The translations under genes and the position numbers were made by a program. A DNA stretch of 50,456 bases from Alphaproteobacteria bacterium. Lineage in GTDB: Bacteria > Pseudomonadota > Alphaproteobacteria > JAPULJ01. Of this stretch, positions 4,306 through 17,403 are shown one piece after another. The notes under the pieces are model-generated. The model worked only from the letters and a program-made list of their open reading frames with translations. It made no database searches and was not told the DNA's origin. Each line of letters starts with the position of its first letter. The stretch's first letter is position 1. The stretch spans positions 1 through 50,456 of the forward strand of contig JAPULJ010000020.1 in NCBI GenBank assembly GCA_027295145.1. Direction: 5' to 3'.

Positions 4306-4761
4306 ATGCCGCCGGCGAGCAAGCAGAGCACAATCGACGGAGATGCCCCAACTTACCGGCTGGAGCATCAAATCGGGCACTTGTTGCGGCGGTCCCACCA
4401 GCGTGCCTCGGCGATCTTCATGGCCCGGTTTGCTGTCCACGGATTGACCCCAACCCAATTCGCGGCGCTGGCCAAGATCAGCGACGAGAATGAAGTCTCG
4501 CAGAACCAACTCGGACGCCTGACAGCGATGGATCCGGCGACCATGAAGGGGGTCATCGACCGCCTGCGCGGGCGCTCGTTGATCGTCAGCAAACCGGACC
4601 TGACAGACCGGCGGCGAACATTATGGAGGCTCACCGATTCCGGCAAGCAAACCCTTACCCAAGCCTTGCCGGCGGGCTTGGAAACGACCGAAGCAACCTT
4701 GGCGCCGCTCGACGCCAAGGAGCGGCGGGTATTTTTGGAGTTGCTTTCCCGCTTGATTTAA
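4306..4761 (+). CDS. MarR-family transcriptional regulator
   Basis: 151-aa ORF with a winged-HTH pattern (LTPTQFAALAKI...SQNQLGRLTAMDPATMKGVIDRLRGRSLI...DRRR). Confidence 0.85.
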   Translation: MPPASKQSTIDGDAPTYRLEHQIGHLLRRSHQRASAIFMARFAVHGLTPTQFAALAKISDENEVSQNQLGRLTAMDPATMKGVIDRLRGRSLIVSKPDLTDRRRTLWRLTDSGKQTLTQALPAGLETTEATLAPLDAKERRVFLELLSRLI

Positions 4762-4826: not shown

Positions 4827-5735
4827 ATGAGCCCGAGTGAACGGGCCGGCAGGGAGGACAAAAAGCCTACAATGGGCGTCTATTTGCGACCCGAACGACT
4901 TGATCAGGCGCTCGATGCGTTAAGCGCCCAACCGTTGACGATCCTTGCCGGCGGCACTGATTTCTACCCTGGCCGGGTCGGCCGGCCCCTCGACGACGAT
5001 GTTCTCGACATAACCGCCCTGGGCGCCCTGCGCGGCATCGAGGATCGCGGCGATCACTGGCGCATTGGCGCGCTGGCCACCTGGAGCGATCTTGTCCGCG
5101 CCGATACGCCGCCCGCCTTCGACGGGCTGAAGGATGCGGCGCGCGAGATCGGCGGCCTGCAAATCCAGAATACCGGCACGCTTGCCGGCAATCTCTGCAA
5201 CGCATCGCCAGCCGGCGACGGCGCCCCCGTCCTACTCGCCCTCGACGCAAATGTCGCCCTGGCCAGCGCCATGGGGAAGCGCGCGCTGCCGGTGGCCGAT
5301 TTCATCAGCGGCAACCGGAAGACCGCGCTGGAACCGGGAGAGCTGGTGGTCGGGATCACGGTGCCCAAACCGGCACCAGGCGCGGCGGGCAACTTCCTGA
5401 AGCTGGGCGCGCGAAAGTACCTCGTCATCTCGATCGCCATGGTGGCCATCGTCATAGAACCGGAGGAAGCACCGGCAGGCGCAGTGGTTGGGAATGCACG
5501 GGTTGCGGTCGGAGCCTGCGCGCCGGTATCAAAACGCCTCGGCCTCCTTGAAGACGCATTGGCTGGCCAAAAATTGGACCAGGCGCTAGGGGAGATCGCA
5601 ACCGAAAGCCACCTGCGGGGTGAGCTTTCGCCGATCGACGATATTCCCGGCTCAGCAGATTACCGGTGGTCCGCGGCGCTGACATTGCTGCAGCGCGGCC
5701 TGTCCGCCCTCGGCGAAAAGCTCGGAAGCGCGTGA
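4827..5735 (+). CDS. molybdenum hydroxylase FAD-binding (medium, CoxM/XdhB-like) subunit
   Basis: ILAGGTDFYPG and GTLAGNLCNASPAGD motifs of the FAD_binding_5 family. An alternative start at ATG 4872 (MGVYLRPERL...) is possible. Confidence 0.85.
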   Translation: MSPSERAGREDKKPTMGVYLRPERLDQALDALSAQPLTILAGGTDFYPGRVGRPLDDDVLDITALGALRGIEDRGDHWRIGALATWSDLVRADTPPAFDGLKDAAREIGGLQIQNTGTLAGNLCNASPAGDGAPVLLALDANVALASAMGKRALPVADFISGNRKTALEPGELVVGITVPKPAPGAAGNFLKLGARKYLVISIAMVAIVIEPEEAPAGAVVGNARVAVGACAPVSKRLGLLEDALAGQKLDQALGEIATESHLRGELSPIDDIPGSADYRWSAALTLLQRGLSALGEKLGSA

Positions 5736-8500
5736 TGAACGTCGCGAAAAACCTGACCCGGTTCACCCTCAACGGGGCTGCGGCCGAACTGCGTTCGCCG
5801 CCGCTGACGAGGCTGGCTCATGGTTTACGCGACGAGCTTGGGCTGACCGGCACCAAGATCGGCTGCGACGCCGGCGATTGCGGGGCCTGCACGGTGCTGC
5901 TCGATGGCGAGCAAGTGTGCGCCTGTCTGGTCGCAGTCGGGCAAGTCGCCGGACTAGAAGTGACAACGGTCGAGGGCTTGGCCACCGACGGTGCGCTTTC
6001 GGCCCTCCAGGCAGCCTTCCAGCGCCACGGTGCGGCCCAATGCGGCATCTGCTCGCCGGGCATGCTGATGGCCGCCACCGGCTTGCTCGCCAGCAACAAA
6101 CAACCGGACGAGGGCGCGGTGATGGACGCCATCGGCGGGGTGCTGTGCCGCTGCACCGGCTATCGCAAGATAATCGCGGCAATCCTCGATCATGCGGGAA
6201 GCGGTTTGGGCGAAACCCCTGCTTCGGGCGAGGCGGTCGGCGCGCGCATGGCCAAGCTCGACGGTGTCGCGAAACTCAACGGCACGGAGAAATTTGGCGA
6301 CGACAGCGCACCGGAAGACGCCCTATGGCTGCGCGCGGTCCGCTCTCCCCATGCACGAGCGCGCTTTTCTCTTGGTGATTTCTCTGGCGTTCGCGCCCGC
6401 TATCCAGGGCTGGTCGAGATTTTTACCGGTCGCGACGTACCGGGCAGCAATTCATTCGGCGTCTATCCGCTGGGCAAGGACCAGCCGGTGCTCGCCATCG
6501 GCGAGACACGATATCGCGGCGAGGCCATCCTCGCACTGGTCGGCGACAAGGCCAGCATCGAGGCGATCGGCGACGAGGAATTGCCGATCGATTGGCATCC
6601 GCTTGAACCGGTCCTCGGCATCGAAGCCGGGCTAGCCGACGGCGCGACTCTGGTCCAGGACGCCAAGGCGGGAAACATCCTGGCAAGCGGGCATTTGCGA
6701 AAGGGTGATATCAAGGCGGGTTTCGCCGAAGCAGACTTCATAGCCGAGGGGCGCTGGCGGACCTCTTTCGTCGAACACGCCTATATCGAACCCGAAGCCG
6801 GCTGGGCCGAGCGTAAGGGCGAGCGGATCGAGATCTGGGTATCGACCCAGACCCCCTACATGGACCGTGACGAGGTCGCCCATGTCTTGGGCATAGAACG
6901 CGACCAGGTGCGGATCGTGCCCAGCGCATGCGGCGGCGGATTCGGAGGCAAGCTCGATCTGTCGGTTCAGCCCCTGGTGGCGATTGCCGCCTGGAAGCTC
7001 GGCCGGCCGGTGCGCTGCGCCTATTCGAGACCCGAAAGCATGGCCTCGTCGACCAAGCGCCATCCGGCGCGGATCACCGCGCGCGCCGGCTGCACCACAG
7101 ACGGCAAGCTGACTGCTTTCGCCTTCCACGGCGATTTCGATACCGGCGCCTACGCCTCCTGGGGGCCGACCGTCGCCGACCGGGTACCGATCCACGCGAC
7201 CGGGCCCTTCGTCGTGCCCAATGTGGAGAATACCTCCGTCGCGGTTCACACCAACGCACCGCCCTCGGGCGCTTTCCGCGGCTTCGGCGTGCCCCAGGCG
7301 GCGCTGGCTCACGAGGCGCTCTACGACGAATTGGCCGAGAAATGCGGGATCGATCCCTTGGAATTCCGCCTCATCAACGCCATCGGCGCAGGACAGGAAA
7401 CCGCGACGGGGCAGGTGCTCGAAGCCAGCGCCGGGCTCGGCGCCTGTCTCCAAGCGCTGAAGCCCCACTGGGACGAAGCCCGCAAAGTTGCCGAAGCGGG
7501 CAATCACAGAAGTACCAACGGCACCGTCCGCGGGGTTGGGATTGGCTGCATGTGGTATGGCTGCGGCAACACCTCGATGTCGAACCCCTCGACAATGCGG
7601 GTGGGGATCGACGCTTCGGGAGGACTGACGCTCTATAACGGCGCGGTCGACATGGGTCAGGGGCCGAACACCATCATGGTGCAAATCTGCGCCGACGCAC
7701 TCGGCCTGCCGGCTTCGCTTTTCACCACGATCATGGGCGACACCGACCTCACCGCCGACGCTGGCAAGTCGTCAGCTTCGCGGCAGACTTTTGTTTCCGG
7801 CAAGGCGGCCCAACTAGCAGGCGAAGATTTGCGACAGCAGATCCTGCGCCTGGCCAATGTCAGCGGCGATGCGCTCATCGATATTGCAAAGAGCGTGATC
7901 ACTGTCCACGAAGGTTACGGGGTGCGCCATATCGAATTGTCAGCGATGAAGGCCAATGCGCACGGCGATGTGCTGACTGGCGAAGGCAGTTTCGATCCGC
8001 CGACCACACCGCTCGACGAATACATGCAAGGGGCGCCTTACGCGACCTATGGCTTCGGCGTCCAGATGGCCGAGGTTGAGGTCGATGAGGCGCTCGGCAC
8101 GGTCAAGGTTTCGCGCATCCTTGCCGTCCACGATGTCGGCCGGGCGATCAACCCGATCCAGGTCGAAGGCCAGATTGAGGGCGGCATTGCACAAGGGTTG
8201 GGGCTGGCGCTGATGGAGGAATTCCTCCCCGGCGTTACCGAGAACCTGCACGACTACCTAATCCCCACCGCCGGCGACCTGCCGCCGATTGAGAGCATCC
8301 TCATCGAAGACCCCGAACCACTTGGGCCTTACGGCGCCAAGGGCATCGGCGAGCAGTCGCTGATCCCGACGGCGCCGGCGATATTCGGCGCTATCCATCA
8401 CGCGACTGGCGTGCGCATGCGCTTTGCGCCGGCCACCCCACACCGGGTTCGAGCGGCGATCCTGGCGGCGCGCGGGCCAGGGGGACACGACGATGCCTGA
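5735..8500 (+). CDS. molybdenum hydroxylase, fused [2Fe-2S] small subunit + molybdopterin-binding large subunit (xanthine dehydrogenase/aldehyde oxidase family)
   Basis: N-terminal part has GCDAGDCGACTV, QCGICSPGM and CRCTGYRKI (two 2Fe-2S sites). It is followed by a roughly 750-aa Moco domain with GGGFGGKLD. Start placed at ATG 5735, which overlaps the upstream stop (ATGA); the track's 5666 start would overlap the previous gene by 70 nt. Confidence 0.9.
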   Translation: MNVAKNLTRFTLNGAAAELRSPPLTRLAHGLRDELGLTGTKIGCDAGDCGACTVLLDGEQVCACLVAVGQVAGLEVTTVEGLATDGALSALQAAFQRHGAAQCGICSPGMLMAATGLLASNKQPDEGAVMDAIGGVLCRCTGYRKIIAAILDHAGSGLGETPASGEAVGARMAKLDGVAKLNGTEKFGDDSAPEDALWLRAVRSPHARARFSLGDFSGVRARYPGLVEIFTGRDVPGSNSFGVYPLGKDQPVLAIGETRYRGEAILALVGDKASIEAIGDEELPIDWHPLEPVLGIEAGLADGATLVQDAKAGNILASGHLRKGDIKAGFAEADFIAEGRWRTSFVEHAYIEPEAGWAERKGERIEIWVSTQTPYMDRDEVAHVLGIERDQVRIVPSACGGGFGGKLDLSVQPLVAIAAWKLGRPVRCAYSRPESMASSTKRHPARITARAGCTTDGKLTAFAFHGDFDTGAYASWGPTVADRVPIHATGPFVVPNVENTSVAVHTNAPPSGAFRGFGVPQAALAHEALYDELAEKCGIDPLEFRLINAIGAGQETATGQVLEASAGLGACLQALKPHWDEARKVAEAGNHRSTNGTVRGVGIGCMWYGCGNTSMSNPSTMRVGIDASGGLTLYNGAVDMGQGPNTIMVQICADALGLPASLFTTIMGDTDLTADAGKSSASRQTFVSGKAAQLAGEDLRQQILRLANVSGDALIDIAKSVITVHEGYGVRHIELSAMKANAHGDVLTGEGSFDPPTTPLDEYMQGAPYATYGFGVQMAEVEVDEALGTVKVSRILAVHDVGRAINPIQVEGQIEGGIAQGLGLALMEEFLPGVTENLHDYLIPTAGDLPPIESILIEDPEPLGPYGAKGIGEQSLIPTAPAIFGAIHHATGVRMRFAPATPHRVRAAILAARGPGGHDDA

Positions 8501-9974
8501 CGATGGCACTAACGCAGCGGTCGATATCATCACCTGCGACGCCTGTCCGGTCCTATGCCGAATACGCGAGGGGCGGACCGGCGCTTGCGACCGATATGGA
8601 AATGTAAAAGGTGCGCTAACCCGGATGGACCCATTCGTCGTGACCCAGAAGGTAGCTGAAAAAGACGGCCAACTGGTGGCCTTCGGCAGCGAGCAGTGGG
8701 ACGGCTCGATGATCAAGGGTGCGCCGGTCTTCGTCACCGGCATCGGATCGGGCACGACCTATCCGGACTACAAACCTGCGCCGTTCATCATCGCCTCGGA
8801 GCACGAGGGGATCGACATGATAACGGTCGTCTCCGAGGGCATCTTTAGTTATTGCGGTTTCAAGGTGAAGATCGACACCGACCGTTTCATCGGCCCTGAA
8901 ACCGCTTCGGTGCGCGTCGATGGCGAGAAGATCGGCCACGTTACCACCATCGAGTACGGCTCGCAGATGCTATCCCTCGGCGGCGTTCACCACCTGACCG
9001 GCGGTTCCAAGCGCGAGGGCAAGGTGACCTGCGATACGATGCTCAGGCTGGGCGATGGCAATCCGGTCGAGATGAGCGTCGATGGCGGCGTGACGCTGAC
9101 TGTCGAGGCCGGCAAGCCGCCGATCATCGATGGGAACTTAGAGGAGCGCATGCGGGTCGGCTGCGGCTCGGCGACGATCGGTATCTTCGCAAAGCAATGG
9201 TATGGGCACGCCGACGAGGTGATCGTTGTCGACGACCACATCACCGGGGTATTGAGCGAGCACCAGGCCGGCCGATTTCTCGGGCTCGAACCCGCGGGGA
9301 TCCGCGTGCGCGGGCGAAAATCGACTCCGGGTCGTTATTTTCGGGTGGCCGAGCCGGGGACCGGCTGGGGCGGTACCGACATCACCGACCCGCTTCGCAT
9401 CATCGAGAGCATCGATCCCAAGACCGCTTGGTCGGGCCTGCGTCTGATGATGGTCAGCACGACGGGCGAGGACGCAGCCTATTTCGTTCTCGACAATAAT
9501 CTCAAGCCTGTCGCCGTGGACATGCCGGCGCCCCTGCAGGTTGTTGTCGACCGGATCGGCGAGAATTGCGAGCCGTCGCTGTCGACCGTCCTCTTCATGG
9601 CCGGTGCCGGGGGCAGCCTGCGCGCCGGGGTTACGGAGAACCCCGTCCGCCTGACCCATTCGGTCAAGGCCGCCCTGACCCGCGTCACCTGCGGCGGCGC
9701 GCCGGTTTATGTCTGGCCCGGCGGAGGCATCACCTTCATGGTCGACGTCACCACTCTGCCGCAAGGCGCGTTCGGCTCCGTGCCGACCCCGGCGATCGTG
9801 GCGCCCATCGAATTCACGCTGCGGCTGGAGGATTACGGCGCCATGGGCGGGCACTTGGACGCCGTGCGCCGGGTCGAGGAGATTGCCGACACCGACCGGT
9901 TGAAGTCGATCCGCTGGCACGATACCGCGCCCTGGCCCGGTGCGCCGCTGGCCGGTGTGGGGGAGGGGTCATGA
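8493..9974 (+). CDS. Cys-rich protein of the family annotated as 6-hydroxynicotinate reductase (Hnr-like); function here unproven
   Basis: 493-aa ORF. The N-terminus is MPDDGTNAAVDIITCDACPVLCRIREGRTGACDRYGN (C-x2-C-x3-C ... C). The family assignment is from memory of RefSeq-annotated homologues. Start at ATG 8493, an 8-nt overlap with the upstream gene. Confidence 0.6.
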   Translation: MPDDGTNAAVDIITCDACPVLCRIREGRTGACDRYGNVKGALTRMDPFVVTQKVAEKDGQLVAFGSEQWDGSMIKGAPVFVTGIGSGTTYPDYKPAPFIIASEHEGIDMITVVSEGIFSYCGFKVKIDTDRFIGPETASVRVDGEKIGHVTTIEYGSQMLSLGGVHHLTGGSKREGKVTCDTMLRLGDGNPVEMSVDGGVTLTVEAGKPPIIDGNLEERMRVGCGSATIGIFAKQWYGHADEVIVVDDHITGVLSEHQAGRFLGLEPAGIRVRGRKSTPGRYFRVAEPGTGWGGTDITDPLRIIESIDPKTAWSGLRLMMVSTTGEDAAYFVLDNNLKPVAVDMPAPLQVVVDRIGENCEPSLSTVLFMAGAGGSLRAGVTENPVRLTHSVKAALTRVTCGGAPVYVWPGGGITFMVDVTTLPQGAFGSVPTPAIVAPIEFTLRLEDYGAMGGHLDAVRRVEEIADTDRLKSIRWHDTAPWPGAPLAGVGEGS

Positions 9975-10891
9975 CCGGCCCAGCGCCTGTGCAAGCCGTG
10001 CTGCCCGGTGGACGCCGGCATTTCCAGCACGGGCCCATCGACTTGGTGATAGAGGTTTTCGGCGCGCCGGAGGAGGTAGCAGCTGCCTACACGCAGGCCT
10101 GGGCGCGCTTTAAAACCGTGCTCGCCGAGCTTGTTCAGGAGCTACCGGCCCTACGACGGCCCGTGTCGGACGCGGGAGCAATGCGGGGATCGATCGCAAT
10201 CGCCATGCGCGAAGTCTGCTTGGCCCACGGGGCCGTATTCCTGACCTCGATGGCGGCGGTCGCGGGCGCGGTCGCCGATGCGGTACTGGCGGCGCTGACG
10301 CCGGGCCGGCGGCTCGATAAAGCCTATGTCAACAACGGCGGCGATATCGCGCTCTATCTGGCGCCAGGGCAGGCCTTGCGCGCCGGCATCGTCACAATGG
10401 GAGCGACGCCGGGCCTCGATGGCGCGGCGCTGATCGACAGCCGAACAAGCGTGCGCGGCATTGCCACCAGCGGCTGGCGCGGGCGTAGCCAATCCCTCGG
10501 CATTGCCGATTCGGTCACGGTGCTGGCCGGTAACGCCGCGATGGCCGACGTGTGCGCCACGCTTATTGCCAACGCGGTCGATATCGAAGACAAGGCGATC
10601 CGGCGCGTGCCTGCATATTCTCTCGACCCTGACAGCGATCTAGGAACGCGGTTTGTAACCATCGGGGTCGGCCGATTGCCGCCGGAACGTATCGAGCGCG
10701 CTCTCGCGAGCGGCGTGAACGCGGCCCGGGACATGCACGGGCGCGGCCTCATCGCCGGGGCGCTTCTCAGTCTTCAGGGACGTTTCCAGAATGTGGGCGA
10801 TGATGAAGTACGCCTTGGCACTGAAGAAAAATTCATAATCCCCGGCTTTGCCGGGTTGTCCTCAATAGGCAGGATCGAAGCAAGGATTTGA
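9971..10891 (+). CDS. UPF0280 family protein (ApbE-like fold by recollection)
   Basis: 306-aa ORF starting at an ATGA overlap with the upstream gene (MTGPAPVQAVLPGGRRHFQHGPIDLVIEVFG...). The 9566 start given in the track lies inside the previous gene. Confidence 0.65.
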   Translation: MTGPAPVQAVLPGGRRHFQHGPIDLVIEVFGAPEEVAAAYTQAWARFKTVLAELVQELPALRRPVSDAGAMRGSIAIAMREVCLAHGAVFLTSMAAVAGAVADAVLAALTPGRRLDKAYVNNGGDIALYLAPGQALRAGIVTMGATPGLDGAALIDSRTSVRGIATSGWRGRSQSLGIADSVTVLAGNAAMADVCATLIANAVDIEDKAIRRVPAYSLDPDSDLGTRFVTIGVGRLPPERIERALASGVNAARDMHGRGLIAGALLSLQGRFQNVGDDEVRLGTEEKFIIPGFAGLSSIGRIEARI

Positions 10892-10946: not shown

Positions 10947-12176
10947 ATGAATATCAAGATGACGCGCAGGATTGTTATGGCCGGCGTCGCGGCGGCGGCG
11001 GCAAGCATGGCGCTTAACGCGCCTGGTGCATTGGCCGAAGGGTCGATCAAAATCGGCGAAATCAATTCCTACAGCCGATTGCCGGCCTTCACGCTGCCCT
11101 ACCGCAACGGCTGGCAGTTGGCGTTGCAGGAGATCAACGCTGGCGGCGGCATCAACGGCAAGACGCTGATCGTGATCAGCCGCGACGATGCCGGCAAACC
11201 CGGCAATGCGGTCAAGATTGCCGCAGAACTGGTCGCCAAGGACAAGGTCAACATGCTGATGGGTACGTTCTTCTCCCATATCGGGCTAGCGGTCACCGAC
11301 TTCGCCGGCAAGTCCAAGACCTTCTTTCTCGCTGCCGAGCCGCTGACCGACGCGATCGTCTGGAAGAAGGGCAATCGTTATACCTTCCGCTTGCGCCCCT
11401 CGACCCACATGCAGTCGGCGATGCTGGCCGAGCAGGCGGCCAAGTTGGGGCTCAAGCGCTGGGCCACCATTGCGCCGAACTACGCTTACGGCAAGGACGC
11501 GGTGGCGGCCTTCGTCAGCGAGCTCAAGCGGCGCCAGCCGGGCGTCGAGATCGTCGTCCAACAATGGCCGAAACTGTTCAAGATCGACGCCGGCGCCGAG
11601 GTCCAGGCGCTGATCAGGGCCAAGCCGCAAGGCATCTACAACGTCACTTTTGGCGGCGACCTTGCCAAGTTTGTCCGAGAGGGCAACATCCGCGGGCTGT
11701 TCAAGGGCCGCAAGGTGGCCAGCCTGTTGACCGGCGAGCCAGAATATCTCGACGGACTCAAGAAGGAAGCGCCCAGCGGCTGGATCGTCACCGGCTATCC
11801 TTGGTACGCCATCAAGACTGCGGCGCACACCAAGTTCCTGAAAGCGTACCGGGCCCGCTTCAAGGACTATCCGCGCACCGGATCGCTGGTCGGCTACAAC
11901 GTCATGCTGGCGGCGGCGGCCATCTTGCGCAAAGCCAAATCGCACGACGCCGAGGGGCTGATCGCCGCGGCGCGCGGCATTACCGTCGACTCGCCGTCCG
12001 GGCCCTTCACCTTCCGCGCGATCGACCATCAGTCGACCATGGGCGCATGGGTCGGCCTGACTGCGGTGCGCAAGGGCAAGGGCATCATGGTGAATTGGCA
12101 CTACGCAAACGGCGCCGACTATCTGCCGAGTGACGCGGTGGTCAAGAAGCTGCGCCCGGCGGCGGCGATGAAATAG
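10947..12176 (+). CDS. ABC transporter periplasmic substrate-binding protein (LivK / branched-chain amino acid-amide type)
   Basis: Signal peptide MNIKMTRRIVMAGVAAAAASMALNAPGALA followed by IKIGEINSYS..., typical of the Peripla_BP_6 family. GGAGGGAG Shine-Dalgarno sequence. Confidence 0.9.
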   Translation: MNIKMTRRIVMAGVAAAAASMALNAPGALAEGSIKIGEINSYSRLPAFTLPYRNGWQLALQEINAGGGINGKTLIVISRDDAGKPGNAVKIAAELVAKDKVNMLMGTFFSHIGLAVTDFAGKSKTFFLAAEPLTDAIVWKKGNRYTFRLRPSTHMQSAMLAEQAAKLGLKRWATIAPNYAYGKDAVAAFVSELKRRQPGVEIVVQQWPKLFKIDAGAEVQALIRAKPQGIYNVTFGGDLAKFVREGNIRGLFKGRKVASLLTGEPEYLDGLKKEAPSGWIVTGYPWYAIKTAAHTKFLKAYRARFKDYPRTGSLVGYNVMLAAAAILRKAKSHDAEGLIAAARGITVDSPSGPFTFRAIDHQSTMGAWVGLTAVRKGKGIMVNWHYANGADYLPSDAVVKKLRPAAAMK

Positions 12177-12215
12177 GCGGCGGTCAAGAAGACCACGCCC
12201 AGATAGACGCCGGCC

Positions 12216-14078
12216 ATGGCGTACGACCAGCAGATCGTTCTGCTGCTGACCGGTCTCGCCAACGCGGCGTCGCTGTTCCTGGTGGCATCGGGTCTCTCGT
12301 TGATCTTCGGGGTCACCAGGATCGTCAACTTCGCCCACGGCTCGTTCTACATGCTGGGAGCTTATATTGCCTTTTCGCTGATCGAGGCGATTGGCGGCAG
12401 CGTGGTAGGTTTCTGGGGCAGCGTGCTGTTGGCGGCGCTGGCGGTCGGGGTCATCGGGGTCATCGTCGAGCTGCTCATTCTGCGCTGGATTTACCGGGCG
12501 CCGGAGCTGTTCCAGCTGATTGCCACATTCGGCGTGATCCTGATCATCAAGGATGCAGTGCAGTGGGGCTGGGGGGTCGAGGAAGCGCTTGGCCCCCGCG
12601 CCCCCGGCCTCGATGGCGCGGTTATCATCGGCAGCCAACGAATATCCGAATACGACCTAGTATTGATTGCCGTGGCGATTGCCGTGCTCGTGGCCGTATG
12701 GACGGTGCTGCACCGGACGCGCTGGGGGGTGCTGGTGCGCGCCGCCACCCTCGACCGGGCGATGGCCAGCGCCCTCGGCGTCAATCAGAAATTGCTGTTT
12801 ACCAGCGTCTTCTTTCTTGGCTCGTTCCTGGCCGGGCTCGGCGGCGCGCTCCAGGTACCCAAAGAGACGATCCAACTTCAAATGGATTTCAATATCATCG
12901 CCGAGGTCTTCGTCGTCGTCGTGGTCGGCGGCATGGGCTCGCTCGGCGGCGCCTTCCTGGCCGCCCTCTTGATCGGCGTGCTCAAGAGCTTCGCCACCGT
13001 CTACGTGCCCGAACTGACCCTGGTTCTCACCTTCCTCATCATGGCAGTGGTGCTGGTGGTGCGGCCGTGGGGCTTGCTCGGCCGCAAGGAAAGTGCCCAG
13101 CGGCTTGGCGAAGCCGCCATCGATAAGCCCCTGCGCCCACCCGAGCGCCGGATGTTATGGCTCTACGCGGCGGTTGGTCTGTTCCTGCTGGCGCTGCCGA
13201 TGATCGGCGGCGAGTTTGCCAAGATCCTCGGCGTCGAGATATTAATCTTCACGCTTTTGGCCGCCAGTCTCCATTTCATCATGGGCTCGGGCGGCATGGC
13301 CAGCTTTGGCCACGCCGCCTATTTCGGTCTCGGCGCCTACAGCGCCGCCCTGTTGGTCCAGTACTTGGCATTGCGCATGGAACCCGCGCTGATCGCCGCC
13401 CCGGTCGCCGGCGCGGCGGCCGCCCTCCTGTTCGGCTGGTTCTGCGTGCGCCTGTCGGGGGTCTACATGGCCATGCTGACAATGGCCTTTGCCCAGATCG
13501 CGTGGTCGGTGGTGTTCGGCTGGGATGCGCTGACCGGCGGCGATGACGGGGTCATCGGCATCAGGCGGCCGGATTGGGCCAGGAACGCCACCGCCTTTTA
13601 TTATTTCACACTTGTGATCTGCCTTGCCGGGGTGGCGGCGATGCGGCGGATCCTTTATGCGCCTTTCGGTTACACCATGCGGGCGGGACGCGATTCGCCG
13701 CTGCGGGCCGACGCCATCGGCATCAATCTGCGTCGCCACCAATGGTTCGCTTTCACGCTCTCAGGCGCCTTCGCCGGGGTCGCCGGCGGGCTCTACCTGT
13801 TCTCCAAGGGCAACACTCACCCCGACGTGCTGGCCATCCCGCAATCGATCGATGCGTTGCTGATGGTGCTGATGGGCGGGGTCAATTCGCTCGCCGGCCC
13901 GCTGGTCGGCGGCGCTGTCTTCACTTGGCTGCACGATGAAATCTCGCGCTTCGAGTATTGGCGCTGGATCCTCGGCCTGATCATCGTTGCCATTGTCATC
14001 CTGTTCCCCAAGGGCATCTCGGGCTCGCTCCGCGATCTTCTCGGCGAGCGCCTCGGCTTCGTGCGGCGGGAGGAATAA
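12216..14078 (+). CDS. fused LivH-LivM type ABC permease
   Basis: A single 620-aa ORF. The first ~290 aa are LivH-like (SLIFGVTRIVNFAHGSFYMLGAY). After a linker (RKESAQRLGEAAIDKPLRPPE) comes a LivM-like half (GGMASFGHAAYFGLGAY). Confidence 0.9.
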   Translation: MAYDQQIVLLLTGLANAASLFLVASGLSLIFGVTRIVNFAHGSFYMLGAYIAFSLIEAIGGSVVGFWGSVLLAALAVGVIGVIVELLILRWIYRAPELFQLIATFGVILIIKDAVQWGWGVEEALGPRAPGLDGAVIIGSQRISEYDLVLIAVAIAVLVAVWTVLHRTRWGVLVRAATLDRAMASALGVNQKLLFTSVFFLGSFLAGLGGALQVPKETIQLQMDFNIIAEVFVVVVVGGMGSLGGAFLAALLIGVLKSFATVYVPELTLVLTFLIMAVVLVVRPWGLLGRKESAQRLGEAAIDKPLRPPERRMLWLYAAVGLFLLALPMIGGEFAKILGVEILIFTLLAASLHFIMGSGGMASFGHAAYFGLGAYSAALLVQYLALRMEPALIAAPVAGAAAALLFGWFCVRLSGVYMAMLTMAFAQIAWSVVFGWDALTGGDDGVIGIRRPDWARNATAFYYFTLVICLAGVAAMRRILYAPFGYTMRAGRDSPLRADAIGINLRRHQWFAFTLSGAFAGVAGGLYLFSKGNTHPDVLAIPQSIDALLMVLMGGVNSLAGPLVGGAVFTWLHDEISRFEYWRWILGLIIVAIVILFPKGISGSLRDLLGERLGFVRREE

Positions 14079-14842
14079 TGAGCGTCCTCGAAGTCACCAA
14101 TTTGTCCAAGAGTTTCGGCGGCGTGCGGGCGGTCGACAACGTCTCGTTTACCCTCGATGCCGGCCAGCTCCTGGCGTTGATCGGCCCGAACGGGGCCGGC
14201 AAGACGACCTGCTTCAATATGTTGAATGGGCAGCTCCGCCCCGACGCCGGGGAGATTCGGCTGGACGGGACCTCGATCTTCGGCCTGCCGCCCCGCCGGA
14301 TCTGGCGCCTCGGCGTCGGCCGCACTTTTCAGATCACCGCGACATTTGCCTCGATGACGGTGCGCGAGAATGTGCAGGTTGCGCTTCTGAGCCACCATCG
14401 ACAGCACCGCGCGCTTTTCCGGCCGGCGGCAAGCCGTCATGTGGAGGAGGCGATGACGTTGCTCGCCCGCGTCGGCATGGCGGAGCAACACGACCGCGCC
14501 TGCGGCATACTCGCCTATGGCGACATCAAGCGGGTCGAGCTGGCGGTGGCCCTGGCCAACCAGCCAAAGCTGTTGCTGATGGACGAGCCGACCGCCGGCA
14601 TGGCCCCCAAAGAACGCGTCGAACTGATGGCGCTGGCCGCCGAGATCGTGCGCGAACGCAACATCTGCGTGCTATTCACCGAGCACGACATGGATGTCGT
14701 CTTCGCCCATGCCGACCGCATCATGGTTCTCGACCGGGGCAAATTGATAGCGGAAGGCCCCCCGAAGGAAGTGCGGGCGAACAGTCAGGTCCAGGAAATT
14801 TATCTGGGCAGCGGCGTGGTCCACGGGGTGAAGACGTCATGA
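14078..14842 (+). CDS. ABC transporter ATP-binding protein (LivG-like)
   Basis: Walker A GPNGAGKTT, signature-like LAYGDIKRVELAVALA, Walker B LLLMDEPTAG. Start at a TAATG overlap with the permease stop. Confidence 0.9.
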   Translation: MSVLEVTNLSKSFGGVRAVDNVSFTLDAGQLLALIGPNGAGKTTCFNMLNGQLRPDAGEIRLDGTSIFGLPPRRIWRLGVGRTFQITATFASMTVRENVQVALLSHHRQHRALFRPAASRHVEEAMTLLARVGMAEQHDRACGILAYGDIKRVELAVALANQPKLLLMDEPTAGMAPKERVELMALAAEIVRERNICVLFTEHDMDVVFAHADRIMVLDRGKLIAEGPPKEVRANSQVQEIYLGSGVVHGVKTS

Positions 14843-15564
14843 GCGCCAACGATACTCTCGATATCCTCTCGGTGCGGGGCCTGCACGCTTATTACGGCCG
14901 CGCGCATATTCTATCCGATGTCGGCCTCGAACTAAGGCGCGGCGAAGTCGTCGCCCTGCTCGGCCGCAATGGCGCCGGCAAATCGACGACACTGAAATCG
15001 ATCATGGGGCTGGTCCGCCCGGCGAAGGGCGAAATCAACTTTCTGGGCACATCTATCCACGGCTACGAGCCCTACCGCATCGCCCGGCTGGGGCTCGGCT
15101 ATGTGCCCGAGGACAGGCGCGTCTTCGCCGACCTGACGGTGATGGAGAACCTCGAAACCGGCCGACAGAAGCCGCGACCGGACGCCCCCGAATGGACGCC
15201 CGAGCGGCTATTCGCAATGTTCCCCAAATTGGCCGAGATGCGCAACCGTCAGGCCGGGCGGATGAGCGGCGGTGAGCAGCAAATGCTGACCATCGTGCGT
15301 ACTCTGATGGGCAATCCACGCGCATTATTGCTCGACGAGCCCTCCGAAGGGCTGGCCCCGGTAATCGTCGAGCAGATGGCCAACACCATAATCGACCTCA
15401 AACAGCAGGGACTTTCGATCCTGCTTTCGGAGCAAAACCTCTACTTCTCAACCCTGGTCTCCGATAGAGCCTACATCATCGAGAAAGGCCGCATTCGTTA
15501 CGAAGGAACAATGGAGGAACTGGGCAAGAACGAGGAGGTTCGTGCAGCCTACCTGACCGTTTAG
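14839..15564 (+). CDS. ABC transporter ATP-binding protein (LivF-like)
   Basis: GRNGAGKSTT, MSGGEQQML, LLLDEPSEGLAP. ATGA overlap with the upstream gene. Confidence 0.9.
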   Translation: MSANDTLDILSVRGLHAYYGRAHILSDVGLELRRGEVVALLGRNGAGKSTTLKSIMGLVRPAKGEINFLGTSIHGYEPYRIARLGLGYVPEDRRVFADLTVMENLETGRQKPRPDAPEWTPERLFAMFPKLAEMRNRQAGRMSGGEQQMLTIVRTLMGNPRALLLDEPSEGLAPVIVEQMANTIIDLKQQGLSILLSEQNLYFSTLVSDRAYIIEKGRIRYEGTMEELGKNEEVRAAYLTV

Positions 15565-15597: not shown

Positions 15598-16182
15598 ATG
15601 AAAGCAACAATTCGCAAGTTCGTCGTCCTGGTCGAAGAAACAAGGCTTGAAATTGGCCAGGCAATCGATCCCCCGACCCGCAAGGCGGCGGCGCTGGCGG
15701 TGATCGAAAACCCCTTCGCCGGCAAGTTCACCGAAGATCTCGAAGGGCTGATGGAGATCGGCGCCGAGCTTGGCGAGGTCCTGGGGCGCAAGGCGGTGGC
15801 GGCGTTGGGAGTCGAGCCGGGCGCCATCGAGAGCTATGGCAAGGCAGCCATCGTCGGCGAAAATGGCGAGCTCGAACACGCCGCCGCGATCCTGCATCCT
15901 CGCCTCGGCAAACCCTTGAGGGCAGCGGTGGAAAAGGGCGCGGCGCTGGTGCCCTCGGCCAAGAAGATGGGCGGCATGGGCACGCCGCTGGACGTACCAT
16001 TGGGGCACAAGGACGCGGCCTACGTGCGGAGCCATTTCGACGCCATCGAGGTGCGCCTCGGCGATGCGCCGCGGGCCAACGAAATCCTTGTCGCCGTGGC
16101 CGTGACCGACAGCGGCCGGCCGTTACCGCGTGTCGGCGGGCTGACCCATGCGGAGGCAGAAGGCAAGGACGGTTTGAGATAG
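15598..16182 (+). CDS. DUF1185 / 'amino acid synthesis' (AA_synth) family protein, function unknown
   Basis: 194-aa ORF beginning MKATIRKFVVLVEETRLEIGQAIDPPTRKAAALAVIENPFAGKF..., which matches my memory of this family's N-terminus. GGAAGGGAGGGG Shine-Dalgarno sequence. Confidence 0.7.
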   Translation: MKATIRKFVVLVEETRLEIGQAIDPPTRKAAALAVIENPFAGKFTEDLEGLMEIGAELGEVLGRKAVAALGVEPGAIESYGKAAIVGENGELEHAAAILHPRLGKPLRAAVEKGAALVPSAKKMGGMGTPLDVPLGHKDAAYVRSHFDAIEVRLGDAPRANEILVAVAVTDSGRPLPRVGGLTHAEAEGKDGLR

Positions 16183-16203: not shown

Positions 16204-17403
16204 ATGGCTTTAGTCGCTACCAATCAGGCCCCGAAGGGCAAACTGGTGGTCAAGAATATCGGCCTGATGCTGTCAGGCGATTTGCAGGCGCCGATCCTCG
16301 ATGCCGACTGCATTATCGCCATCGACGGGCGCATCGATTCCATCGGCAAGGAATCGAGCCTCGACACCAAGGGTGCCGATACGCTTGTTGACGCCAAACA
16401 GACAGCGCTCGCGCCGGGGCTCATCGACAGCCACGTCCATCCCGTGTTTGGCGACTGGACGCCGCGCCAGATTCAGATCAACTGGATCGACAGTTTCCTG
16501 CACGGCGGGGTGACGACGATGATCTCGGCCGGCGAGGTCCATTTGCCGGGCCGGCCCAAGGACATCGTCGGATTAAAAGCGGCGGCAATCACGGCGCAAC
16601 GCTCGTTCGACAATCTGCGCCCCGGCGGCATCAAGTTGCACGCCGGCGCGCCAGTCATCGAAAAGGGCATGGTCGAAGAAGACTTCAAGGATCTCGCCGA
16701 AGCCGGCGTAAAGCTCCTGGGCGAGGTCGGGTTGGGCGGGGTCAAAGAAGGCGAGGAGGCCAAAAAGATGGTCGCCTGGGCGCGCAAATATGGCCTCCAG
16801 AGCACAATACATACCGGCGGCCCCTCAATCCCCGGCTCGGGCCTGATCGATTCCGACGTCGTGCTCGAGGCCGATGCCGACGTGATCGGCCATATCAATG
16901 GCGGCCACACCGCGCTGCCGCTAAAAGAAATCCGGTGCCTGTGCGAGCGCTGCACCCGGGCCATCGAGATCGTTCATAACGGCAATGAAGCGGCGGCGCT
17001 CTACGCCATGCGCACGGCGTTCGAACTAGGCCAGAGCGAGCGTATCATCCTGGGCACCGATTCGCCGGCCGGCTCGGGCGTCCAGCCGCTCGGTATCCTG
17101 CGCATGATCGCCATGCTGAGCGCTATCGGCGATGTGCCGGCCGAGATTGCCTTCTGCTTCGCCACCGGCAATACGGCGCGCATCCGCGAGCTCGATTGCG
17201 GCCTCCTCGAGCCCGGCCGGGCGGCCGATTTCGTCATCCTCGATCGCGCCCAGCACACCGCCGGCAAGACGTTGTTGGAGAGTGTCGGGCTCGGCGATCT
17301 GCCGGGCGTCGGTATGGTCATCATCGATGGTGTTCCCCGCAGCGGCCGCTCGCGCAACACCCCGCCGGCAACGACGCTGCCCGAGATAGTTGGGGCGGGG
17401 TAG
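16204..17403 (+). CDS. metal-dependent amidohydrolase, enamidase-like
   Basis: 399-aa ORF with the amidohydrolase-superfamily HxH motif (GLIDSHVHPVFGDW) and later His/Asp ligand candidates (STIHTGG, GHINGGH, LGTDSP). Confidence 0.75.
   Translation: MALVATNQAPKGKLVVKNIGLMLSGDLQAPILDADCIIAIDGRIDSIGKESSLDTKGADTLVDAKQTALAPGLIDSHVHPVFGDWTPRQIQINWIDSFLHGGVTTMISAGEVHLPGRPKDIVGLKAAAITAQRSFDNLRPGGIKLHAGAPVIEKGMVEEDFKDLAEAGVKLLGEVGLGGVKEGEEAKKMVAWARKYGLQSTIHTGGPSIPGSGLIDSDVVLEADADVIGHINGGHTALPLKEIRCLCERCTRAIEIVHNGNEAAALYAMRTAFELGQSERIILGTDSPAGSGVQPLGILRMIAMLSAIGDVPAEIAFCFATGNTARIRELDCGLLEPGRAADFVILDRAQHTAGKTLLESVGLGDLPGVGMVIIDGVPRSGRSRNTPPATTLPEIVGAG

Follow-up and report, generated by a model that had tools for sequence, protein, structure and literature searches.

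A UPF0280 protein with the ApbE fold as a probable dedicated helper of 6-hydroxynicotinate reductase and a candidate for its flavin attachment

What is the task of a UPF0280 protein whose start codon overlaps the stop codon of a gene for 6-hydroxynicotinate reductase (Hnr)? The question is raised by a stretch of 50,456 nucleotides (nt) from an alphaproteobacterium (positions 1 to 50,456 of contig JAPULJ010000020.1, assembly GCA_027295145.1; hereafter the window, meaning this whole stretch), in which an hnr-like gene at 8493..9974 (493 amino acids (aa), P0001) and a UPF0280 gene at 9971..10891 (306 aa, P0002) follow one another on the + strand. An earlier reading of this DNA without database searches (the sequence-only reading) had proposed that the UPF0280 protein attaches flavin to its neighbour in the manner of ApbE. 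Here, we report that UPF0280 has the ApbE-type fold and that its gene sits behind hnr nearly wherever Hnr occurs. It is therefore very probably Hnr's private helper, a dedicated and partner-specific maturation factor, and we put the probability of this reading at about 0.8. The most specific mechanism for such a helper, and the one easiest to test, is that it attaches flavin mononucleotide (FMN) to Hnr by chemistry of the ApbE type; we favour it tentatively, at somewhat less than even odds.

The 493-aa protein P0001, taken from the open reading frame (ORF) and its translation, is a homolog of the reductase Hnr, of the short proteobacterial form. It matches no Pfam or NCBIfam family, its close homologs number in the thousands, and those that carry a name are called 6-hydroxynicotinate reductase (NCBI, JGI). 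It is 33–43% identical to ferredoxin-fused members of the Hnr family and is encoded together with a molybdenum (Mo) hydroxylase (4827-8500) and an enamidase (16204-17403), as expected for this enzyme (EC 1.3.7.1). A Bradyrhizobiaceae ortholog is reported to be 42% identical to Hnr of E. barkeri (PMC3511419). The downstream protein, P0002, matches the UPF0280 equivalog NF003322 of NCBIfam with 357.6 bits (cut-off 290); UPF0280 equals COG2122 (NF003321-4; DUF375), a family within the ApbE superfamily, and P0002 is its Hnr-linked paralog.

The association of the two genes was followed in several samples. A pattern scan in which each species was represented by a single genome found at least 593 loci that encode Hnr. 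Among the best 80, at 65–79% identity and from alpha-, beta- and gammaproteobacteria with a few others, UPF0280 lies on the same strand as hnr in 78, with 73 of these pairs adjacent; of the two exceptions, one lies on a contig that ends early. The clade in which Hnr is fused to an N-terminal 2x[4Fe-4S] ferredoxin domain was sampled from metagenomes, and UPF0280 directly follows hnr in 69 of these 80 loci. Seven of the other 11 stop short, no more than about 450 nt from hnr, and only one (L138) is clearly without UPF0280. Two loci (L138 and L048) have Hnr and no UPF0280 within 10 kb on each side, and in two more (L019 and L053) UPF0280 follows hnr at a distance of about 5 kb. When the window's phylum was sampled evenly with 401 genomes, Hnr proper (E < 1e-90) was present in 29 and UPF0280 in the same 29, with the two genes always adjacent; an unpublished genome in this sample (G362) has neither gene and counts in the denominator only. 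Five out of five nearer relatives with Hnr, from the window's family and class, have the pair. In one complete genome of the window's class, hnr (G063:C1:2969805-2971231) is split into two overlapping pieces by an apparent frameshift, and the downstream UPF0280 gene is intact.

Fusions of the two proteins were considered as Rosetta-stone evidence and set aside as weak. Both domains occur together in about 30 long ORFs, mostly singletons on long contigs, and most of these look like artefacts of assembly or of frameshifts. P0120, P0273 and P0391 contain out-of-frame junk at or around the Hnr-UPF0280 junction, and the linker of P0391 resembles a frameshifted copy of the Hnr tail of P0393. The only read-through ORF that looks in frame is P0393 (751 aa, five member sequences).

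In the window the junction reads GGGGAGGGGTCATGA, with the ATG of the UPF0280 gene at 9971-9973 and the TGA of hnr at 9972-9974, so that the genes share the four nucleotides ATGA (9971..9974, + strand). A Shine-Dalgarno-like run of the GGAGG type, GGGGAGGGG, lies upstream of the UPF0280 start at 9960..9968. Among the 73 adjacent proteobacterial pairs, the 4-nt overlap recurs in 28 and a 1-nt overlap in nine, and the gap is zero or less in 45; because the overlap is seen repeatedly in other loci, the arrangement is not due to chance and supports translational coupling. The genes of the ferredoxin-fused clade are mostly without overlap. Upstream, the ATG of hnr at 8493 and the TGA of the preceding Mo-hydroxylase subunit at 8498-8500 enclose 8 shared nt (8493..8500, + strand, from sequence and ORF list), and together the two overlaps make hydroxylase, reductase and UPF0280 a single translationally coupled string. 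The sequence-only reading had thus placed the ATGA overlap correctly, and the linkage that it left to be looked for elsewhere proved near absolute (29 = 29 among the 401 genomes; 12 = 12 in the second phylum described below). Its claim that the overlap implies stoichiometric co-expression was an over-reading, since coupling is supported and a 1:1 ratio is not.

UPF0280 has a second partner, and it is the comparison of the two that argues for partner specificity. Price et al. (2018) showed that homocysteine synthesis in D. vulgaris Miyazaki F requires COG2122 (DvMF_0044) along with DUF39 and NIL/ferredoxin, the cofitness of COG2122 and DUF39 being r = 0.98 (PMC5764234). As summarised in the same paper, Rauch and Perona found MA1715 of M. 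acetivorans to be needed at low sulfide, and persulfide handling was proposed by Rauch and colleagues (PMC5764234). In a paper from 2025, MA1715 is described as a sulfur-trafficking protein that M. acetivorans needs in order to assimilate sulfide efficiently (PMC12068725).

For a second phylum we took 61 genomes grouped around that of locus L009 and found DUF39 in 40 of them. A high-scoring COG2122 of the NF003323 type is present in 38 of these 40 and in no other genome, and often adjoins DUF39. A second, low-scoring and divergent COG2122 paralog occurs in 12 of the 61 genomes, which are exactly the 12 with Hnr; it adjoins hnr in ten and lies on another contig in two fragmented assemblies. Two paralogous branches that each keep to one partner, and that are found together in genomes with both systems, are the mark of an accessory factor specific for its partner. 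The window's own genome lacks DUF39 (PF01837), and in the 401 genomes of its phylum UPF0280 is found only beside Hnr, unlike the characterised members associated with DUF39.

The two branches have a nucleotide/metal core in common and part ways in the active site. The DUF39-linked proteins DVU1097 (structure 2o34), DvMF_0044 and MA1715 share with P0002 the motifs P-M-A-A-V-A-G, N-G-G-D, T-S-G, G-x-S and D193...T197...N201, and on both sides the protein is the dedicated companion of one ferredoxin-dependent enzyme, often encoded next to it, which is Hnr for P0002 and DUF39 for the other three. For the residue preceding T-S-G, we compared 94 Hnr-linked proteins from both Hnr clades with 12 DUF39-linked ones: it is Cys in 12/12 of the latter, whereas Ala (81/94) prevails over Cys (11/94) in the Hnr branch, with A165 in P0002, and no Cys is conserved anywhere in the 94 proteins. 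R172 is invariant in the Hnr branch and is replaced by His in 8 of the 12 DUF39-linked members. The Hnr branch also has an insertion of about 36 residues (208-243) relative to the DUF39-linked branch. A region that overlaps this insertion, residues 204-291 of P0002 (10580-10843), matched as a single sequence, with E 3e-4, the C-terminal domain in the large subunit of CoFeSP (2h9a/4c1n); as this is not reproduced by the family profile, it was rejected as probably due to chance. Homology between the partners themselves was likewise rejected, as hhalign gave Hnr and DUF39 a probability of 0.2–0.4% over a short VDVVT-like strand only, and a feature search of the ESM Atlas returned only Hnr-like and Fer4 clusters.

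The fold of UPF0280 indicates what kind of helper it may be. With an AlphaFold2 (AF2) model of P0002 (predicted local distance difference test, pLDDT, 79), Foldseek retrieved DVU1097 (2o34) first (E 6e-8), followed by about 20 chains of ApbE, Ftp and FmnB with probabilities of about 1. Structural alignment by VIA-align gave Z 18.5 to DVU1097 (root-mean-square deviation (rmsd) 3.5 over 217 residues) and Z 13.9-16.1 to 1vrm, 7mgt, 6nxi, 7esa, 4xgv and 3pnd (rmsd 3.3-4.2, 205-223 residues), as against only about 8 for the next, unrelated T-fold structures. The ApbE-type fold of UPF0280 is thereby confirmed. At the sequence level, 2o34 matches the UPF0280 family profile with E 2.7e-7, and hhalign of that profile against one built from five proteobacterial ApbEs (alignment A6) gave E 2.8e-5. 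UPF0280 is a trimmed cytoplasmic relative of ApbE that has kept the two-T-fold core: it shares this core with ApbE/Ftp/FmnB (PF02424; 6nxi, 4xdr, 7esa, 1vrm) but is about 60-100 residues shorter, and P0002, which begins MTGPAPVQ, has neither signal peptide nor lipobox. One relative from the ferredoxin-type clade (L126:11554-12387) passes the Pfam ApbE model with 28.9 bits (cut-off 25.6).

The GGD, TSG and A-D-x-x-x-T motifs of ApbE align with N-G-G-D125, T166-S167-G and A192-D193...T197 of P0002. S167, D193 and T197 correspond to S248, D291 and T295 of the ApbE alignment and are invariant in 94/94 Hnr-linked members, and the spacing S248/H264/D291 in that alignment agrees with S241/H257/D285 of a review of ApbE (PMC12052999). 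Also invariant in the 94 proteins are G21, P22, M79, T92, A96-G99, N122-D125, T166-G168, G171-S173, G177, N201 and D223. Judged from this conservation, the predicted pocket keeps the residues that in ApbE serve Mg2+ and the AMP/pyrophosphate part of flavin adenine dinucleotide (FAD), without the proposed general base.

In many hosts there is no other obvious enzyme for the task. Canonical ApbE is absent from the window's own genome (93% complete) and, at E <= 1e-10, from 12 of the 29 pair-bearing genomes of the phylum sample. Five of these 12 are complete genomes of a single genus, represented by seven complete genomes in all, in which the pair is always found. If the flavin of Hnr is attached enzymatically, UPF0280 is therefore the sole candidate from the ApbE superfamily in these ApbE-less organisms. 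Hnr of E. barkeri reportedly carries a covalently bound flavin.

The target side offers one candidate. In 155 Hnr homologs the motif C15-x2-C18-x3-C22-x9-C32 of P0001 is invariant and forms one cluster site, and C224, Y155, R377 and E440 are invariant as well; a Fer4 domain is absent from P0001 and present in P0246, P0250 and P0321. The AF2 model of Hnr (m8e3b65d02956) is of good quality by its scores (pLDDT 87.5, predicted template modelling score 0.85), and yet Foldseek found nothing in the PDB at E <= 1e-3 and the best VIA-align score was Z 3.9, on a small barrel at residues 121-214. This barrel is faintly like the C-terminal barrel of GCV_T. As the model has no significant match, no known flavin-binding fold can be assigned, and the Hnr core appears from it to be a structurally undescribed Fe-S flavoenzyme. 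Residue 442 is Thr in 147/155 and Ser in 8/155 sequences, and T442 is the only Ser/Thr that stays invariant in the most divergent Hnr alignment. It lies in the invariant motif P438-x-E440-x-T442 at a strand end preceding a helix. The alternation of Thr and Ser may be likened to that at ApbE acceptor sites, and T442 would be the only conserved hydroxyl acceptor candidate in Hnr.

On these grounds the following mechanism can be proposed. UPF0280 would bind FAD-Mg2+ in its conserved pocket (N122-G-G-D125, T166-S167-G, R172-S173, D193...T197, N201) and move the FMN moiety as a phosphoester onto a hydroxyl of Hnr, for which T442 in its P-x-E-x-T motif is the best candidate, with release of AMP. A general base other than that of ApbE would be needed, and the invariant R172 or Hnr itself, for example, might provide it. 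The outcome would be a covalent flavin such as that reported for the E. barkeri enzyme.

Several points weigh against flavin attachment. The loop that in the ApbE alignment holds H264-x3-P268-x2-G271 (H-x-x-D-P-x-x-G; H257 in V. cholerae) is deleted in the UPF0280 profile, and no His is conserved across the 94 Hnr-linked members; this His is the general base according to the ApbE review (PMC12052999). P0002 matches no Pfam family at E <= 0.01 and so stays below the threshold of PF02424 (ApbE). Hnr shows no conservation of Dxx(s/t)gA(T/S), the motif of ApbE targets, and has no FMN_bind domain. The invariant C224 or Y155 could form a self-catalysed 8-alpha or 6-S flavin link, for which a helper is not needed. 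Family members with genetic data are only those acting with DUF39 (the aspartate-semialdehyde sulfurtransferase L-ASST) in sulfide assimilation, and we know of no description of DUF39 as a flavoprotein. No experiments on the Hnr/UPF0280 pair were found in the searched literature.

The expectations of the sequence-only reading were therefore borne out unevenly. It had placed UPF0280 in the ApbE-like superfamily, with which Foldseek and VIA-align agree. Of the ApbE active site, the Ser of TSG and A-D-x-x-x-T are kept, and the catalytic His is lost with its loop. A conserved Ser/Thr flavinylation motif of the ApbE kind, for which it had suggested a search in Hnr, did not emerge, for besides the missing ApbE motif the look-alike GSAT at 225-228 varies: position 228 is T/S/A in the 155 sequences, members further off have C/I/L/V, and it is already Ala in a 79%-identical homolog (P0120), so GSAT was rejected as a site. 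Its statement that no activity had been assigned to UPF0280 was incomplete, in that genetic evidence exists for DvMF_0044 and MA1715.

Could UPF0280 handle sulfur instead? It might act as a sulfur or Fe-S maturation factor that brings sulfur to the Cys4 cluster (C15/18/22/32) of Hnr or forms a persulfide at C224, with no transfer of flavin. The DUF39 precedent speaks for this, both in the shared requirement for homocysteine synthesis (r = 0.98) with the persulfide handling proposed there (PMC5764234) and in the sulfur-trafficking role ascribed to MA1715 (PMC12068725). Modules of the 2x[4Fe-4S] ferredoxin type serve both partner systems, Hnr has five invariant Cys, and the loss of the catalytic His from UPF0280 fits as well. 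However, the Cys before TSG in all DUF39-linked members has mostly become Ala in the Hnr branch, where no Cys is conserved; that this residue serves as a conserved sulfur relay in the branch is thereby made less likely. Hnr and DUF39 have no detectable homology by hhalign. General Isc/Suf systems exist in aerobic proteobacteria and serve ordinary clusters. Taken together, we regard a sulfur role in the Hnr branch as unlikely.

About equally improbable is that UPF0280 is a non-catalytic partner of Hnr, either a stable subunit or a chaperone for folding or for holding the cofactor, whose ApbE pocket only binds a ligand such as non-covalent FAD or FMN; it might, for instance, keep apo-Hnr stable. 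The strict co-occurrence, the common start/stop overlaps (45/73 pairs with a gap of zero or less), the lost His and the rare read-through ORFs that join both proteins (P0393) are all consistent with it. But the residues for metal and phosphate binding (D125, S167, R172, S173, D193, T197, N201) do not vary between two clades with only about 40% identity in Hnr, and with such constancy chemistry fits better than mere binding; moreover, the genes of the ferredoxin-fused clade usually do not overlap and the fused ORFs mostly look like frameshift artefacts. Hnr of E. barkeri is also reported to have been purified as one type of polypeptide.

Weakest is the idea that UPF0280 uses an AMP/Mg2+ site as an FAD pyrophosphatase, making FMN for Hnr, or as a transferase of some group other than FMN: Ftp of T. 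pallidum, which has the same fold, is described as an FAD pyrophosphatase (PMC4767422), and what is conserved of the pocket binds AMP and pyrophosphate in ApbE (PMC12052999), but a private pyrophosphatase is hard to justify if, as we infer, FMN is freely available in the cytoplasm, and there is no evidence for another modification, so that we consider both variants quite improbable.

Flavin attachment may also be extended from Hnr to the whole family. COG2122 would then consist of cytoplasmic, His-less transferases of the ApbE type, each paralog providing the ferredoxin-dependent reductase that is its partner with a covalent, nucleotide-derived cofactor, FMN taken from FAD, at T442 in Hnr and likewise on the DUF39 aspartate-semialdehyde sulfurtransferase. 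Such a generalisation is a long shot; if true, modification of DUF39 in methanogens and sulfate reducers would explain the need for COG2122 in homocysteine synthesis.

The pair is part of a larger cluster on the + strand. At its head lies a MarR-family regulator (4306..4761; PF01047, E 5e-10), followed by a CoxM-like FAD-binding subunit of the candidate nicotinate hydroxylase (4827..5735; PF00941, PF03450) and a fused 2Fe-2S/molybdopterin subunit (5735..8500; Fer2_2, Ald_Xan_dh_C, MoCoBD_1/2), which matches chains A, B and D of E. barkeri nicotinate dehydrogenase (3hrd) among other Mo hydroxylases. Downstream of UPF0280 are a Liv-type ABC importer with binding protein, fused permease and ATPases (10947..15564; Peripla_BP_6, BPD_transp_2, ABC_tran), a PF06684 'AA_synth' (DUF1185) protein (15598..16182; E 2e-73) and the enamidase (16204..17403), which aligns to E. 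barkeri enamidase (2vun) with E 1.5e-111 over 381 residues. The cluster is the proteobacterial version of the E. barkeri/Azorhizobium-type nicotinate pathway, in which the ring is hydroxylated, reduced and opened. With gene content as in E. barkeri, the cluster itself is already known: Mo hydroxylase, Hnr, enamidase and ABC importer are shared with the nicotinate clusters of E. barkeri, Azorhizobium caulinodans and Bradyrhizobiaceae (PMC3511419), and a Bradyrhizobium locus (L081) was found among the window's close relatives. Clostridial-type Hnr differs in its N-terminal 2x[4Fe-4S] ferredoxin domain, which the window's Hnr does not have.

Some observations on relatives of this cluster may be added. 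Two Hnr homologs, P0245 (982 aa) and P0254 (969 aa), carry a GltD/DPD-like NAD(P)H-flavin module (Fer4_20 and Pyr_redox_2) ahead of the Hnr core, which suggests variants driven by pyridine nucleotide. The PF06684 protein is a second conserved unknown of the nicotinate cluster. In a ferredoxin-type locus (L088) it directly follows UPF0280 (12497-13096), and long read-through ORFs (P0402, P0407 and P0412) link UPF0280 to it. The same locus encodes, downstream of its hnr cluster and after a PadR regulator, a 612-aa protein with FMN_red (NADPH-dependent FMN reductase) and SCP2 domains (L088:14166-16004), which could serve the supply of flavin or of electrons.

The UPF0280/COG2122 family is widespread, one structure has been solved (2o34), and mutants have clear phenotypes. 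The Hnr pair is the most tractable point of entry into its biochemistry, for here the partner is soluble and reportedly holds a covalent flavin, the helper is strictly co-inherited and many hosts are without another ApbE-like protein. Should flavin attachment prove false, sulfur or cofactor handling would be indicated, which is just as informative for the DUF39 field. If it is true, the flavin transferases would gain a new branch, cytoplasmic, relying on another catalytic base and acting on a new target site. The finding would then open a route to active recombinant Hnr, of relevance to the degradation of nicotinate and of the neonicotinoid metabolite 6-chloronicotinate, and provide a lead on the requirement for COG2122 in anaerobic homocysteine synthesis.

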